A stretch of 64,000 nucleotides of DNA from Patescibacteria group bacterium (GTDB lineage: Bacteria; Patescibacteriota; Minisyncoccia; Phycocordibacterales; Phycocordibacteraceae). The DNA lies in the NCBI GenBank assembly GCA_040384705.1, contig JAZKIU010000001.1, positions 478,053 through 542,052 on the forward strand, read 5' to 3'. Positions 1,369 through 28,714 of this stretch are shown here, in pieces. Position 1 is the first letter of the stretch. The number at the start of each line of letters is the position of its first letter. The position numbers and the translations under genes are program-made. The notes below the pieces were generated by a model. It did no database searches. It was not told the origin of the DNA and worked only from the letters and a program-made list of their open reading frames with translations.

Positions 1369-2181
1369 ATGTCATATTCACGCATCACCACGTTCTCCCT
1401 CGCGCTCATTCTCGCGTTCTCCTTCCTCCCGTTCGCGGCATATGCCGCGGATGTTGAAGCTAGTATCGACGAAAGCAGCCTGACTACGTCCTCGAAGAAA
1501 CCAACCATATCGGGCGAGACCAACGCGACTACGTCGGTATACGTCGTCGTGCGCTCTGAGGCCGGCAAGATTGTGTATAAGAAGATCGCGAAGGTTAAGG
1601 ACGGCGAATGGAAAGCGAAGATGACCCGCACCCTCAAGAGAGGGGACTACGAGGTGAGCGTCTATGAATCGAAGAAGTCCAAGGACGCTCTGGACGAGGA
1701 AACGCTCACACTCACCACCAAGTCCAAGGCAAAGACGGCAGGGAAGTCATCAGCCTCCCTTTCGGTCACTTCGGTGCCGCTTCTGTTCGGCGGGAACGCT
1801 AAGCTCGGCAGCTCCATCCCGGTCGCGTACGTGAAGCTCGTGAACACGACGAACGCAACAACCTCGATAGAAGGATTCACTCTCCGCCAGAACGGGTCGG
1901 CCGCGACCGATATCATAACGACGTTCGCAACGAACGACGATAAGGGCGGGTCGCGCACGGTTGTACCGAGCGTATTCAAGAAAGGGGAGGTATACGTACC
2001 GCTTGCAGCCGAACTCGCCCCAGGCCAGATGCGCATCTTCACACTTAAGGCCGCATTGAACGCGGCTTCGTACACTGCACTCGGCAAGACGCTTGTGCTC
2101 GACGTGGTATCAGTCGACACGAGTGCGAAGCTCGTTGGAACGCTCCCGCTCCGTGGTACCGTTTGGACATTGGCGTTCTAA
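1369..2181 (+). CDS. Secreted protein (signal peptide), unknown function
   Basis: N-terminus MSYSRITTFSLALILAFSFLPFAAYAA. Rich in Thr, Ser and Lys with beta-rich composition. Confidence 0.6.
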   Translation: MSYSRITTFSLALILAFSFLPFAAYAADVEASIDESSLTTSSKKPTISGETNATTSVYVVVRSEAGKIVYKKIAKVKDGEWKAKMTRTLKRGDYEVSVYESKKSKDALDEETLTLTTKSKAKTAGKSSASLSVTSVPLLFGGNAKLGSSIPVAYVKLVNTTNATTSIEGFTLRQNGSAATDIITTFATNDDKGGSRTVVPSVFKKGEVYVPLAAELAPGQMRIFTLKAALNAASYTALGKTLVLDVVSVDTSAKLVGTLPLRGTVWTLAF

Positions 2182-2204
2182 CCTAGCGCCCGCACCTACT
2201 ACCT

Positions 2205-2522
2205 ATGATCTCACTCCTTTTCGGTTTCGTTATCGGCATCGCGTTCGTCATCTTTGCGCTGCAGAATACCGCCATAGTGGCGCTCTCCTTCCTTGGGTGG
2301 AAGTTCGAGAGCCCGCTCGCGCTCGTTGCGCTCCTGGTCTTTGCGGCCGGTATCGCCCTCTCAGCTGCCGTTTCCATCCCGAGCGTCATACGCGACAGCT
2401 TGCGTATCCGACGGCTCGAGAAGGAGAATGGCGTATTGCGGAACGAGCGTGATGAGCTCGCTACGGCTCTCGAGAACTACAATCCGGTGGTGGTAACGAG
2501 CCCTCACCTCGCTCAGCGCTAA
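2205..2522 (+). CDS. LapA-domain (DUF1049) small membrane protein
   Basis: Two transmembrane segments followed by a coiled-coil tail RRLEKENGVLRNERDELATALE, the typical LapA_dom architecture. Confidence 0.55.
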   Translation: MISLLFGFVIGIAFVIFALQNTAIVALSFLGWKFESPLALVALLVFAAGIALSAAVSIPSVIRDSLRIRRLEKENGVLRNERDELATALENYNPVVVTSPHLAQR

Positions 2523-14859: not shown

Positions 14860-15465
14860 ATGTCGGATCGGATAGAGGAGCTCTCGCGTGCCTTCGAGCG
14901 ATTCCCGGGAATCGGGCCCCGTCAGGCGAAACGTTTCGTATATCACCTTCTATCGGTGCCGCCGTCTGACCGTGCGCGGCTTGCAGACCTTTTGATAAAC
15001 CTGGGACAGGACATACGCCAGTGCGTTATGTGCATGCGCTTTTCGCCCACGAACAGTGAGAACCTCTGCAATCAATGCGCGGACAGCCATCGGGACGATA
15101 CGCTCCTCATGCTCGTGGAGAAGGACCAGGACCTTGCGGCGGTCGAGCGCGCGAACGCGTACCGTGGCCGCTATTTCGTGCTGGGCGGCGTGCTCACGCT
15201 TTCGGGCAAGGGACAGATCCGTGAGCGCGACCTCATCCGGGTCGTCGAGGAGCGCGCCAAGCAGGGGCTAGCGGAGATAGTGCTCGCGCTTTCGGCGACG
15301 AGCGAGGGAGAGCACACGGCTGATAGGGTTCGCGAGCTCCTCTCCCCTCTTCGAGGACCCATCCGCCTCTCTCAGCTCGGTCGGGGTCTCTCTACGGGTT
15401 CCGAGCTTGAGTACTCGGACGCAGAGACGCTGTCGGGCGCGCTTCAGAACAGGAAGGAAACGTAG
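14860..15465 (+). CDS. recR: Recombination protein RecR
   Basis: HhH FPGIGPRQAKRF, zinc finger CVMC..CNQC, Toprim domain. Confidence 0.92.
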   Translation: MSDRIEELSRAFERFPGIGPRQAKRFVYHLLSVPPSDRARLADLLINLGQDIRQCVMCMRFSPTNSENLCNQCADSHRDDTLLMLVEKDQDLAAVERANAYRGRYFVLGGVLTLSGKGQIRERDLIRVVEERAKQGLAEIVLALSATSEGEHTADRVRELLSPLRGPIRLSQLGRGLSTGSELEYSDAETLSGALQNRKET

Positions 15466-25397: not shown

Positions 25398-25676
25398 TTA
25401 GCGCCTGGTGACGGTCGGTCCTGCGACCATAGCGGCATAGGTGACGCCGGCTGGCTTGCCGAGCCCGAGCGATGCCGGATTCGTACGTCCGATGCGTTCT
25501 ATCGCCTCGTAGTAGTCATTTTCAAGGAGCGCTATAGCGTTCTCCGCATCGCGCACTTCCGACGCGAGGTCGGTCCTCCATGCGGCAAGCGAGACCGTGA
25601 ACACCATGAGAGCGAGGTACGAAAATATGAGGGCGGAGAGCGTGGCTCCAAGGATGGAAATGGTGCGGTCAGGCAT
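25398..25676 (-). CDS. ftsL: Cell division protein FtsL-like
   Basis: Internal start MPDRTISILGATLSALIFSYLALMVF (transmembrane) followed by a coiled coil. Sits between rsmH and ftsI. Confidence 0.6.
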   Translation of the reverse strand: MPDRTISILGATLSALIFSYLALMVFTVSLAAWRTDLASEVRDAENAIALLENDYYEAIERIGRTNPASLGLGKPAGVTYAAMVAGPTVTRR

Positions 25677-26607
25677 AGAGGGCGAGTGAGCTGCTGGTAA
25701 TAAGGGCTGCGGCGCGAGCGGAGCGTTCGAACACCCGGAGCTTCGCGCTGCGGGCTCGTGGGTTGCGGGTCGATTCTGCGGACGACGGCACGATGGGCTT
25801 CCGGGTGATGACGGTCCCCTGCCCCGCATGCGCCGCATCGCGGAGCATGCTCTTCACGATGCGATCCTCGATGCTATGGAACGTGATGACTGCGACGCGG
25901 CCACCGTCCGAAAGCTTCGCTATCGCGGCCGCGAGGCCCTCACGCAGCGCGCCGAGTTCATCGTTCACCGCGATACGGAGCGCCTGGAAGGTCTTCGTGG
26001 CCGCATGGATGCGGCGCTTCTTGTACCAGCCAGGCACCCCCGCCTCGATTGCAGCGACGAGCTGGCCAGTGGTTTGGATGGGAGCCTCGGCGCGTGCCGC
26101 TACTATCGAGCGCGCGATGCCGCGGGAGAAGTGCTCCTCACCGAGCGTGTAGATGAGGTCGGCAAGAGAGGTTTCCGAGAGGTCGTTCACCATGTCTGCG
26201 GCAGTGGTGCCTTCTTCAGGGGAACCGTAGGTCATATGGAGCGGCTCTTCGGCACGAAATGAGAAGCCGCGGCCAGCTGTGAGGTGGAAGCTCGACCACC
26301 CAAGGTCGAAGAGTGCCTTGTCTATGGTTTCTACTCCTGCGTTCTGGAGGATGGCCTCCAGGTTGCGGAAGTTGTCATGCACGAGCAGCACATTCGCCTT
26401 GGCTCCCTTCCCGGCTTCGGTTGCGCGCTGGATGGCGTCCGCGTCCGCATCGATGCCGATGAGGGTGCCGGAGGCGTCGAGCTTCTCGAGAAGCGATGCG
26501 AAGTGCCCTGCCCCACCGATGGTAGCGTCGACCACGACGTCGCTCGGAGACACTTCGAGCGCCTCGACGGCTTCAGACAATAGGACGCTCTCGTGCTTGT
26601 TCTCCAT
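25669..26607 (-). CDS. rsmH: 16S rRNA (cytosine1402-N4)-methyltransferase RsmH (MraW)
   Basis: HESVLLSEAVEAL...DATIGGAGH... Confidence 0.9.
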   Translation of the reverse strand: MENKHESVLLSEAVEALEVSPSDVVVDATIGGAGHFASLLEKLDASGTLIGIDADADAIQRATEAGKGAKANVLLVHDNFRNLEAILQNAGVETIDKALFDLGWSSFHLTAGRGFSFRAEEPLHMTYGSPEEGTTAADMVNDLSETSLADLIYTLGEEHFSRGIARSIVAARAEAPIQTTGQLVAAIEAGVPGWYKKRRIHAATKTFQALRIAVNDELGALREGLAAAIAKLSDGGRVAVITFHSIEDRIVKSMLRDAAHAGQGTVITRKPIVPSSAESTRNPRARSAKLRVFERSARAAALITSSSLALYA

Positions 26608-26612
26608 ATCGC

Positions 26613-27047
26613 TTAAAGAGCTCCCTGATTACCTAGCTTCTCGGCGAAATCGTCGGCGTCACGCTCGATTGAGCGTGTGTACGTCTCCCACGCCTTCTCG
26701 TCCCAGATCTCCACGCGGTCGGCGACGCCTGCGACCACGTTCTTCACCGATAGTTTCGCGAACGACTTCAAGTAATCCGGAAGGAGGATGCGGCCCGCGC
26801 TATCCACGTCGGCTTCTGACGCACCGGCGAGCATAAGGCGCGAAAGCCCGCGTCCGGCAGCGCTCCCCGTCGAGTATGCGGCGAATCCCTCCGCGTGCTT
26901 CTTCCATGCCGACTTCGGGTATACGAAGAGGCAGTGGTCGAGGCCGCGAGTCACGATGACGCTTGCACCGAGCTCCTTCCGGAACTTCGCCGGAAGAGAG
27001 ATGCGATTCTTTGCATCAAGGGTGTGACGGTATTCGCCGATGAACAT
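26613..27047 (-). CDS. mraZ: Transcriptional regulator MraZ
   Basis: MFIGEYRHTLDAKNRISLPAKFR, duplicated MraZ fold. Confidence 0.9.
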   Translation of the reverse strand: MFIGEYRHTLDAKNRISLPAKFRKELGASVIVTRGLDHCLFVYPKSAWKKHAEGFAAYSTGSAAGRGLSRLMLAGASEADVDSAGRILLPDYLKSFAKLSVKNVVAGVADRVEIWDEKAWETYTRSIERDADDFAEKLGNQGAL

Positions 27048-27190
27048 GTAAGTAAATGGGTCCGTGGGTGAAATTGAGGAGGTCGGAAGAGGAGGAAAAA
27101 CCGCCTTCCCACTTCATCCCACTAGTAGCCAATTATATGACACTTCGCCCCACTAGGCAGGCTGTTATCCCCACTGCGCAGCTGATGAGT

Positions 27191-27222
27191 TTGACAGCTT
27201 AAACCATAGCGCTATCATGATT
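27191..27222 (+). promoter_or_regulatory. Sigma70-like promoter TTGACA-N16-TATCAT
   Basis: Seen directly in the sequence. The ATG of a 29-codon ORF begins 9 nt after the -10 box, giving a near-leaderless transcript. Confidence 0.5.
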
Positions 27223-27227
27223 ACTAC

Positions 27228-27317
27228 ATGAATTACCTCAATCGTTGGATTCTCGGAATTCTCGTCTACTTCGGCCTCCTTACACCGGTCGGGGTCTCGC
27301 TTGAGGTTTCTAAGTAA
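27228..27317 (+). CDS. Candidate leader peptide (29 aa, MNYLNRWILGILVYFGLLTPVGVSLEVSK) overlapping segment A of an attenuator-like element
   Basis: The ORF begins at the predicted transcription start. Its 3' end covers the GGTCGGGGTCT copy at about 27288-27298. Confidence 0.3.
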   Translation: MNYLNRWILGILVYFGLLTPVGVSLEVSK

Positions 27318-27336
27318 GAAGAATTAGAAACTTGAA

Positions 27337-27368
27337 GGAAGACCCCGACCGCAAGGTCGGGGTCTTCC
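27337..27368 (+). promoter_or_regulatory. Perfect 14-bp-stem hairpin GGAAGACCCCGACC-GCAA-GGTCGGGGTCTTCC (terminator/attenuator candidate)
   Basis: Its 5' arm is also perfectly complementary to an upstream direct copy of the 3' arm (GGTCGGGGTCT at about 27288), which allows alternative pairing. Confidence 0.5.
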
Positions 27369-27448
27369 TCGTTATAGGCAAACGAGCTTTTGATCTTTCA
27401 CGGGCGCTCATGCCTAAAGAGCGCCATTCAGGATTTAGGGAGATGCAT

Positions 27449-27883
27449 ATGACGAGCCAAGCGAAGTCCAAGTTCTTCGTGGCCTACGACAACGACCAGG
27501 TCGCGCTGCAGGCGTTGAAGATCCTCCATCGACTCGGATTCCAAGCTCATCAACTTGATGAGGGGGTTCCGCCGCCGAAGGACGCGGTGTTCATCTTCTC
27601 GAGCGACGGCAGGTTCGCGAGCAAGTTCATCGCGACGAAGCCGGAGCAATACGAGAAGCGCGGCATCATGCCGCCGGCTACTGCGGCGAAGGCTCTCCAA
27701 CTCCTTCCCATCAGGAAGGCGGAGCGCGGGTTGCCCTATGGGGCGCCCCGGGAAGAAAATCTCGCCCGGGCTCTCGAGATCTTCGTCGGCTACGAACGCG
27801 AGCGGACTCCGAAGCCCAAGCGCAACCGGCGCGAGGAAAGCAAGCGGCGCAGACGAGAGAATCTCGAATACGCGTGTCGCTGA
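27449..27883 (+). CDS. Hypothetical protein (145 aa) with a basic C-terminal tail
   Basis: SD GGGAG 7 nt upstream of the ATG. The ORF-track N-terminal extension covers the hairpin and is unlikely to be coding. Confidence 0.5.
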   Translation: MTSQAKSKFFVAYDNDQVALQALKILHRLGFQAHQLDEGVPPPKDAVFIFSSDGRFASKFIATKPEQYEKRGIMPPATAAKALQLLPIRKAERGLPYGAPREENLARALEIFVGYERERTPKPKRNRREESKRRRRENLEYACR

Positions 27884-27899
27884 GCAGAATCGGCGGACG

Positions 27900-27931
27900 G
27901 AAGGGCGGCTCGCGGGCCGCCCTTTTCTTGG
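27900..27931 (+). terminator. Rho-independent terminator
   Basis: GGGCGGC-TCGCG-GGCCGCCC followed by TTTTCTT. Confidence 0.7.
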
Positions 27932-27957
27932 GCGTCTACTAATTAGAGGAGGTTCTC

Positions 27958-28128
27958 GTGCTTGGTTGGGCTCTTGTGTTCGCAGTGTTCGCTCTCATCG
28001 CCGGCGGCCTCGGCTTCACGGGTATAGGGGGTGAAGCGGCGAGTATCGCGCGAATTCTTTCCTTTGCGTTCTTGGTGTTCTTTGTGGTGGCGGTGCTGAT
28101 ACAGATGTGGCGCGACCGCCCCACCTAG
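27958..28128 (+). CDS. UPF0391 / DUF1328 small membrane protein (56 aa, GTG start)
   Basis: VLGWALVFAVFALIAGGLGFTGIGGEAASIARILSFAFLVFFVVAVL matches the DUF1328 pattern. SD AGAGGAGG lies upstream. Absent from the ORF track because it is under 60 aa. Confidence 0.65.
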   Translation: MLGWALVFAVFALIAGGLGFTGIGGEAASIARILSFAFLVFFVVAVLIQMWRDRPT

Positions 28129-28147
28129 CTCGACTGAGCCACAAAGA

Positions 28148-28179
28148 GAAACGCCCCGTCTCGCGACGGGGCGTTTTCC
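28148..28179. terminator. Bidirectional terminator between the DUF1328 gene and greA
   Basis: AACGCCCCGTC-TCGC-GACGGGGCGTT followed by TTCC. Confidence 0.65.
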
Positions 28180-28192
28180 AATGAATGTGTCG

Positions 28193-28663
28193 TTACGCTA
28201 CCTTCTCTACCGAATACGTCTGCTTCCCTCCTGGGGTCTCAAAGGTGAAGATGTCTCCCTTCTTCTTGCCCATGAGCGCCGCCCCGAGCGGAGAGACGTG
28301 CGAGAGTTTGCGTGCGCGCATGTCGGCCTCTTCGGAACCCACGATGGTGTACTCGTGCGCTTCGGGGCTTCCCTCCTTCTTGATGACCACGAGCGAGCTG
28401 AAGCCGACGACGTCCTTCTTCTTATGCTCGGTCGTTATCTTGGCGCGCTTCACCAACTCCTCGAGCTTGCGGATACGCTCCTCGGTCGCTGCCTGGAGCT
28501 CGCGCGCTTCCTGGTACTCAGCGTTCTCCGAAAGGTCACCGAGGCTGCGTGCGTACTCGAGATTCTTCGCAATCTCCGAACGCCTCACTGTCTTGAGGGT
28601 ATCGAGCTCCTGGAGGAGTTCATCGAACTTCTCTTGACTCACGACTGTTTCTTGCTCGATCAT
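28193..28663 (-). CDS. greA: Transcription elongation factor GreA
   Basis: N-terminal coiled coil plus C-terminal FKBP-like domain; ...RSLGDLSENAEYQEARE... Confidence 0.92.
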   Translation of the reverse strand: MIEQETVVSQEKFDELLQELDTLKTVRRSEIAKNLEYARSLGDLSENAEYQEARELQAATEERIRKLEELVKRAKITTEHKKKDVVGFSSLVVIKKEGSPEAHEYTIVGSEEADMRARKLSHVSPLGAALMGKKKGDIFTFETPGGKQTYSVEKVA

Positions 28664-28714
28664 GATGAATCACTGATGAATAGTAGAGGTATTGTACGTG
28701 GATAGGTGGGGGCG

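Follow-up and report, generated by a model that had tools for sequence, protein, structure and literature searches.

In classical attenuators (the trpL, pheL, hisL and ilvBNC leaders), a short open reading frame (ORF) at the 5' end of the transcript overlaps alternative helices, the last of which is a GC-rich hairpin before the structural gene, and a ribosome that terminates at its stop codon is positioned to block the antiterminator. In the bmrB-bmrCD and mef/mel leaders, a ribosome that is slowed or stalled early reportedly lets the antiterminator form, and the downstream gene is turned on. Leaderless short ORFs act as attenuators in mycobacteria, as in the polycysteine "Cys ribulon" (bioRxiv 10.1101/834739), and in Deinococcus deserti leaderless leader peptides have been noted (PMC4007540). 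We describe here an element with the layout of a classical attenuator in a 64,000-nucleotide (nt) stretch of a 640-kb contig from a Patescibacteria genome; the whole stretch is called the window. It includes a promoter at 27191 and precedes a gene ending at 27883, and we favor, with some reserve, the view that it acts as a ribosome-dependent attenuator, built on a leaderless leader ORF and set before a fast-evolving protein family. The logic of a ribosome-mediated attenuator had been proposed from the letters of the DNA alone (below, the sequence-only reading); conservation, covariation in both helices and the order of folding support it, and it is probably correct. That reading was aware of no described leader of this form, and neither the literature searches nor Rfam yielded one: the former found no description of this element or of any attenuator in Patescibacteria (candidate phyla radiation, CPR), and Rfam at permissive E-values gave only generic hairpin matches, at 19 to 24 bits against gathering thresholds of 46 to 88. 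The parts of the element and of its putative target are as follows.

27191-27218, + strand: sigma-70-type promoter, with -35 TTGACA at 27191-27196, a 16-nt spacer and -10 TATCAT at 27213-27218
27228-27317, + strand: leader ORF (MNYLNRWILGILVYFGLLTPVGVSLEVSK), 29 codons, with ATG at 27228, stop codon TAA at 27315-27317 and a predicted leader of 0-3 nt
27268-27276, + strand: segment 0 (ACTTCGGCC), which can pair with A in one minimum-free-energy fold or with C in the other
27286-27313, + strand: 5' arm of the long A:B hairpin, inside the ORF (codons 20-29), with its inner-helix arm at 27304-27313
27287-27297, + strand: segment A (GGTCGGGGTCT), the outer part of the A:B 5' arm and an exact repeat of C at 27355-27365
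27314-27323, + strand: apical loop of A:B, which holds the leader stop codon
27324-27351, + strand: 3' arm of the long hairpin, with its inner-helix arm at 27324-27333
27336-27350, + strand: segment B (AGGAAGACCCCGACC), the strand common to A:B and B:C
27355-27369, + strand: segment C (GGTCGGGGTCTTCCT), the 3' arm of B:C, a putative terminator stem
27368-27398, + strand: hairpin D (CTCGTT..AACGAG, 27368-27386) and its T-rich tail CTTTTGATCTTT, terminator-like in the scan
27438-27442, + strand: Shine-Dalgarno sequence GGGAG of the downstream gene, 6 nt before ATG 27449, read from the sequence
27449-27883, + strand: putatively regulated gene, encoding a 144-amino-acid (aa) protein with an alpha/beta domain and a basic C-terminal helix

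The leader ORF and its alternative helices

The sequence-only reading had looked to relatives for conservation of segments A, B and C and of the leader ORF, and all of these are kept in 12 further variants that we recovered from Patescibacteria (Paceibacteria) genomes and metagenomes, which makes 13 with the window (the loci of the relatives are labeled L001 to L022, and L015d is the distal copy in L015). The variants were sought with a degenerate peptide pattern, with a structure-flank pattern and in mraZ neighborhoods. The degenerate back-translated pattern, with wobble positions left free, matched 2 genomes, a pattern anchored on the inner hairpin returned 5 true metagenome loci and 3 false ones, and mraZ neighborhoods gave 6 more loci with the element; two short contigs carrying homologs of the downstream protein also had the leader. 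All 13 variants are divergent from mraZ, with MraZ identities spanning 79 to 99%, and the arrangement appears from these loci to be conserved across a group of tiny-genome groundwater Patescibacteria; L001, L005, L009, L010 and L012 come from the Hainich groundwater wells. One Paceibacteria lineage, represented by L020 and L021, is without the element. A covariance model (R1) found exactly one copy per locus, including one in the 64-kb window, and on that ground a repeat or mobile element was rejected; the only further exact occurrence of the A 11-mer in the window, at 15379 within a 201-aa coding ORF, was dismissed as a chance match. In L015, the model places the true ortholog (L015d) 2 kb from mraZ, behind an inserted module, so that the mraZ-proximal element of this locus was rejected as a diverged ortholog and is treated below as a separate, analogous case.

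The promoter given by the sequence-only reading, TTGACA-N16-TATCAT, was found where it had been placed, with 11 of 12 consensus matches in a promoter scan, which gave no other promoter-like site on the + strand from 25500 to 28633. Its hexamers are conserved in relatives and its spacer has diverged. In the window, 9 nt separate the end of the -10 box from the leader ATG; across the variants, a TANNNT -10 box ends 7 to 10 nt upstream of that ATG (13/13), and no Shine-Dalgarno sequence was found before it (13/13). The ORF is therefore predicted to be leaderless or nearly so and, judging from the promoter geometry, transcription would start at or within about 3 nt of AUG 27228.

The 29-codon ORF is present as proposed. 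Its length ranges from 27 to 34 codons across the 13 variants, with indels solely of 3 nt and the frame preserved, and the offset from the ATG to the core of A is always 54, 57 or 60 nt, the other two frames being closed by stops. The stop codon always lies inside the apical loop of A:B, 3 to 14 nt before the 3' arm and never past it. At the peptide level, conservation is seen in a C-terminal motif, V-[GE]-[VI]-S-[LI]-E-[VLI]-S, and the N-terminal two-thirds are variable. The conserved frame, ATG and stop placement suggest that the ORF is translated.

As for the RNA, a 156-nt stretch folds far better than its shuffles (z = -4.6, with 0 of 200 shuffles as good). The statement that A and C are identical and that B can pair with either held up, since the 11-mer at 27287-27297 recurs at 27355-27365 and the complement of this core lies within B at 27340-27350. 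The B:C hairpin had been described as a perfect 14-bp helix with a GCAA loop; the helix is indeed perfect and closes that loop (27351-27354), but it comprises 15 bp (27336-27350 with 27355-27369; -31.8 kcal/mol). Beyond what had been described, A:B turned out to form just the bottom part of an extended, imperfect hairpin whose arms measure 28 nt each (27286-27313 with 27324-27351, 24 of 28 positions complementary), and we found segment 0, hairpin D and a U-tract after C that is poor. There are two near-isoenergetic global folds, one combining 0:A, the inner hairpin and B:C, the other placing 0:C around A:B.

The helices were tested on a sequence-based MAFFT alignment, with covariation compared to that of 500 shuffles and with partner columns slid as a control.

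B:C: 90% of cells paired (slid, 30.5-55%); 8 compensatory pairs, 25 compensatory cells; covariation 0.431 versus 0.164 shuffled (0/500)
A:B, whole: 88.6% paired (slid, at most 61%); 5 compensatory pairs; covariation 0.123 versus 0.091 shuffled (1/500)
A:B, outer helix only: 82.6% paired (slid, 25-56%); 4 compensatory pairs; covariation 0.154 versus 0.116 shuffled (1/500)
0:A: 91% paired (slid, 25-53%); 0 compensatory pairs; covariation 0.084 versus 0.082 shuffled (318/500)

Compensatory changes back both competing helices, B:C strongly and A:B moderately, the part of A:B that competes with B:C being the outer helix. In L022, the A arm has three substitutions for which B carries matching Watson-Crick changes, and in L016 one outer and one inner pair of A:B are compensated. 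An altered 5' half of B pairs with the invariant CG of A in L013, L016, L018, L019 and L022; in the window this CG faces an internal loop, and in L015d only its G pairs. Since 0:A shows no covariation, a role for this helix is neither supported nor refuted. The A arm keeps 85 to 100% identity to that of the window in relatives in which the synonymous sites of mraZ, a highly conserved neighbor, have no more than 32 to 67% identity, which points to a constraint at the nucleotide level beyond coding, and this conservation is not an artifact of the search because the pattern had left wobble positions free. Overall, the comparison among variants shows a fixed promoter-ATG geometry, ORF frame and stop position, combined with two mutually exclusive, covarying helices.

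Order of folding and the proposed switch

The order of folding was followed in 13 sequences, namely, the 12 variants of the family other than L015d and the L015 mraZ-proximal element. When the RNA extended to the end of B, the minimum-free-energy fold was the long A:B hairpin in 13 of 13 sequences, and the long A:B hairpin was again the best fold when C was masked. Forcing B:C gave a state 2 to 22 kcal/mol more stable than A:B with C masked. When the masked stretch was a ribosome footprint centered on the stop codon, B:C formed in all 12 family variants, while the L015 proximal element formed a long 0':C' helix instead. In these models the antiterminator forms first and the stabler terminator only if A is unavailable, which is the behavior expected of a kinetic attenuator.

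In the attenuator that we propose, a 70S ribosome would load on the AUG once the 5' end of the transcript leaves the polymerase. Arm A, the 3' third of the ORF, would pair with arm B, leaving the stop codon in the hairpin loop. If no ribosome is there, whether initiation is slow or absent or the ribosome stalls early, A:B would keep B from C, and C, made 4 nt after B, could not form B:C, resulting in readthrough into the 144-aa gene. A ribosome at the stop codon would instead melt the hairpin and separate A from B, allowing the 15-bp B:C stem to form; this very stable stem, the stretch rich in U and C behind it and hairpin D, which has a U-rich tail, would then stop transcription or otherwise shut off the transcript. 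Less leader translation would mean more expression of the downstream gene. We infer both this sign of regulation and the action of B:C as a transcription terminator.

Several observations weigh against this proposal. The U-tract directly after C is poor in the window (CGTTATAGG), and termination there may therefore be weak or dependent on hairpin D, whose tail may supply the U-tract that C is short of. Hairpin D recurs with a TTGATCTTT tail in L001, L005 and L019, and good U-tracts stand right after C in L013 (a 16-bp stem, then TTTTTTGTTCTTT), L003, L016, L018 and L022; all of these except L003 are variants that have a U-tract directly after C and no hairpin D. In the untranslated fold, C may pair with segment 0 in a long helix ending just before the U/C-rich stretch, so that the A:B state is not guaranteed to prevent termination. 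A trp-like alternative, in which 0:A also terminates untranslated RNA, may apply, with no covariation behind it. The covariation of A:B is carried mainly by two lineages, L022 and L016, and L003, L012 and L005 have one uncompensated A:B mismatch each. A hidden Markov model (HMM) of the downstream protein family detects no homolog after the element in L008, L012 and L014. The peptide itself could be functional, given its conserved C-terminal motif. Lastly, no codon run for any amino acid was found in the leaders of the 13 variants, in agreement with the sequence-only reading, which had found the peptide not rich in one amino acid.

As there is no amino-acid-specific codon pattern, what is sensed is most likely how leaderless initiation and elongation are timed with respect to the polymerase, and our best guess is that the signal is general translation status and not one amino acid. 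Aromatic residues are about twice as frequent in the leaders as in the background (12 to 21% versus 7.8%), each variant being only weakly significant; the L015 distal peptide has zero aromatic residues, and aromatic amino-acid sensing was dropped for the family of the window for that reason. It is a tentative and rather doubtful suggestion that the element is a sensor of general translation capacity, turning on a lineage-specific basic-tailed protein when 70S loading or elongation lags behind the polymerase. If this were true, the switch might respond to dormancy, starvation or host-dependent growth arrest in ultra-small symbionts.

Other explanations have to be weighed against the attenuator. 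The ORF might be an independent small-protein gene, encoding a 27- to 34-aa peptide that is membrane associated in the clade of the window and having B:C as its own terminator, with leaky readthrough that gives the next gene a lower expression, in which case A:B would serve mRNA stability or translation efficiency. The ORF has indeed already been called by a gene caller and is present at NCBI as an unnamed gene, its C-terminal motif and its hydrophobic core are both conserved and show conservative substitutions, B:C has much the strongest support of the helices, and the RNAalifold consensus consists of three local hairpins, among which the B:C helix is recovered. Moreover, the ORF and hairpin persist in L012, L008 and L014, in which the downstream gene is replaced or unrecognizable. 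The hydrophobic leader peptide of the sequence-only reading holds in the clade of the window, where the peptide resembles a single transmembrane helix, but this look is restricted to that clade: the L016, L019, L022 and L015 distal peptides are charged along their central part and do not resemble membrane peptides, and a small membrane protein was rejected as a general reading on account of these distant variants. Nor would a plain terminator need the compensatory changes in A:B or a stop codon that always falls in the loop; in addition, the synonymous sites of the A arm are frozen, and the stop codon follows the conserved motif at a variable distance, from 1 to 6 codons. We thus consider a small gene with its own terminator unlikely. 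A trans-acting factor, either a protein such as the basic-tailed product of the downstream gene, acting by autoregulation, or a small molecule, might bind the long hairpin and bias A:B versus B:C, the ORF being secondary. The highly basic helix at the end of the downstream protein would suit this, as would the conservation of both arms of the long hairpin in sequence as well as in structure, including flanks that do not vary and an equally invariant G.G mismatch (27303 with 27334). However, the strict frame, the promoter-locked ATG and the stop placement point to translation, and the stacked constraints on each arm (coding plus two pairing partners) can explain the sequence conservation. As the hairpin has no Rfam family match and the RNA is unchanged in three variants without a detectable downstream homolog, a trans-acting factor is quite improbable.

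The two folds might also act on translation, as in the mycobacterial leaderless attenuators or the erm leaders, controlling access to the downstream Shine-Dalgarno sequence or RNA stability, B:C then not being a terminator. This would accommodate the weak U-tract of the window and several relatives, there is complementarity between the pyrimidine-rich 3' half of C (UCUUCCU, 27363-27369) and the Shine-Dalgarno region (UAGGGAG, 27436-27442), and the mycobacterial precedent acts through sequestration of a ribosome-binding site (10.1101/834739). Yet the unpaired probability of the Shine-Dalgarno sequence showed no consistent difference between the two folds in the 13 variants; since accessibility did not follow the fold, an output through translation alone is not supported, and Shine-Dalgarno sequestration was rejected as the output. 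Textbook terminators directly after C in L013, L003 and L018 argue in the same direction, leaving the translational explanation with very little likelihood. Finally, we give hardly any credence to a type I toxin-antitoxin system, in which the ORF would encode a small hydrophobic toxin on a structured mRNA under antisense RNA control. The peptide of the window is short and hydrophobic and the mRNA highly structured, but many variants are not hydrophobic, the scan found no minus-strand promoter-like site in 27219-28690, there was no PADLOC or Pfam match, and the element occurs as a single, strictly syntenic copy beside mraZ at each locus across distant relatives.

The downstream gene and its surroundings

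According to the sequence-only reading, the regulated gene encodes an unknown 145-aa protein with a basic tail. The basic tail was borne out, as a C-terminal helix, and the protein has no match in Pfam, NCBIfam or PADLOC, but the length is 144 aa. The NCBI protein (P0001, 146 aa) starts at ATG 27443, whereas GGGAG fits ATG 27449 and hence 144 aa. A word-seeded search retrieved 3 relatives of the protein, and 9 representatives match among 1.84 billion proteins. The AlphaFold2 model (pLDDT 82.6) shows an alpha/beta domain followed by a long basic C-terminal helix, and its fold matches are generic. Homologs follow the element in L001, L002, L003, L005, L013, L016, L018 and L019; those in L003, L018, L005, L016, L019 and L013 are detected by the family HMM, to which L022 is marginal. 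A variable downstream cargo, which would imply an independent small gene and was suggested by L012, L008 and L005, was weakened by the HMM homologs in L005, L013, L016, L018 and L019.

L012 (6780-7170) and L004 (with a 100-N gap) are the closest loci by MraZ (99% aa identity) and carry a 116- to 127-aa gene with no detectable homology to that of the window; the similarity to the window stops right after C, suggesting gene replacement at this slot. The homolog in L002 (353-787) has an in-frame TAA at codon 31, with the leader and hairpins intact, and could be a pseudogene or reflect an assembly error on a low-coverage contig.

In the window, the promoter scan gave no promoter-like site in the interval that separates the hairpin from the downstream gene, and in relatives the first start codon of a long ORF lies 1 to about 85 nt past the hairpin. 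The lack of a separate promoter and the short spacer indicate that the downstream gene depends on readthrough. Between hairpin D and the downstream Shine-Dalgarno sequence, there is an extra 7-bp hairpin (GGCGCTC..GAGCGCC, 27403-27425), which is conserved in L001. The 5' half of B (GAAGGAAG) is similar to a Shine-Dalgarno sequence.

The element is flanked on one side by a divergent, minus-strand dcw cluster, made up of mraZ (26613-27047), rsmH, an ftsL-like ORF and a penicillin-binding protein gene, and on the other by the + strand gene at 27449-27883. One further feature stands between the mraZ promoter and that of the leader.

27107-27174, no strand assigned: four phased YCCCAC boxes, at 27107, 27117, 27148 and 27169

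These boxes (GTGGGR on the mraZ strand), spaced by 10, 31 and 21 nt, surround the mraZ promoter, whose minus-strand TATAAT is at 27137-27132, and are conserved in all relatives. We take these putative sites to be the probable MraZ operator, on the assumption that MraZ binds GTGGG-type repeats; as the last box is 16 nt from the leader -35, MraZ may also control the leader operon. In L020/L021 (1811-2001; MraZ 79% identical), mraZ comes after a GATase gene on the same strand and a plain terminator, and the YCCCAC boxes are retained.

The 144-aa gene is followed by a canonical terminator (GGGCGGC..GCCGCCC then TTTTCTT, about 27903-27929) and by a DUF1328 gene (27958-28128, + strand), which is convergent with greA (28193-28663, - strand). 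Between the DUF1328 gene and greA lies a 12-bp hairpin (28149-28176) that is terminator-like on the minus strand only, where its tail is CTCTTTGTGG; on the + strand its tail, TCCAATG, is much weaker. These two terminators show the usual style of the genome, beside which the B:C tail of the window is weak.

Comparison with known systems

Gene control is poorly understood in Patescibacteria, whose genomes are very small and contain few recognizable regulators. A conserved switch operated by the ribosome would demonstrate that regulation in this group relies on transcription-translation coupling, would offer a handle on a protein family of no assigned function beside the cell-division cluster and would add a type of leader that has no amino-acid-specific codons and begins at the first base of the transcript. 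The covariance model R1 could be used to annotate the element across Paceibacteria genomes.

The mraZ-proximal element of L015 (about 2150-2345, minus strand of the locus) contains a second, unrelated and putatively leaderless short ORF (MKTQLTSWYSFWFSPSFEGSSLLSS) with 24% Trp/Tyr/Phe, and it has four segments that are complementary to one another (CCCTC / GAGGGCTC / GAGCCCTC / GAGGGCTC). This element precedes a 123-aa gene without assigned function (1779-2150) and an aroFGH-type DAHP synthase gene (373-1449; TIGR00034, 280 bits). It shares with the element of the window the lineage, the leaderless start (the -10 box ends 10 nt before the ATG) and the four-segment layout with the stop codon between A' and B', but its sequence is entirely different, it is aromatic rich and it stands before a DAHP synthase gene. 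It resembles a classical attenuator for aromatic amino acids, here within a CPR genome, and a specific aromatic amino-acid signal is plausible for it, though not for the element of the window. On the tentative reading of the element as a sensor of general translation capacity, this second copy of the architecture, before DAHP synthase, would make leaderless-ORF attenuation a general regulatory strategy in Patescibacteria.

Set against classical attenuators, whose 1:2, 2:3 and 3:4 helices correspond to 0:A, A:B and B:C, the leader of the window differs in having no single-amino-acid codon run, in its predicted leaderless start and in having no Shine-Dalgarno sequence. The equivalent of 1:2 is without covariation support, the U-tract is weak, and the regulated gene is nonbiosynthetic and has no assigned function. 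Unlike in classical super-attenuation, the untranslated RNA is predicted to form A:B and hence to be read through.

With the mycobacterial leaderless attenuators, the element shares a short ORF, here putatively leaderless, as the first cistron and a ribosome whose position would remodel the downstream RNA. The mycobacterial ORFs have cysteine runs and free a sequestered ribosome-binding site (10.1101/834739), whereas the leader of the window lacks any codon run, its competing helix is terminator-like, the accessibility of its Shine-Dalgarno sequence does not depend on the fold, and it belongs to the phylum Patescibacteria. The inhibitor-sensing leaders, like the model proposed here, need no amino-acid-specific codons, and in both a ribosome slowed or stalled early would turn on the downstream gene. 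The leaders bmrB-bmrCD (PMC4191407) and mef/mel (PMC4335068) precede resistance genes for ABC transporters or efflux pumps, in contrast to the alpha/beta, basic-tailed protein downstream of the element, which nothing links to antibiotics. In its architecture, the element thus appears to join the layout of a classical attenuator to a predicted leaderless start of the mycobacterial type, while differing from the known systems in its codons, its phylum, its target and the readthrough predicted for untranslated RNA.

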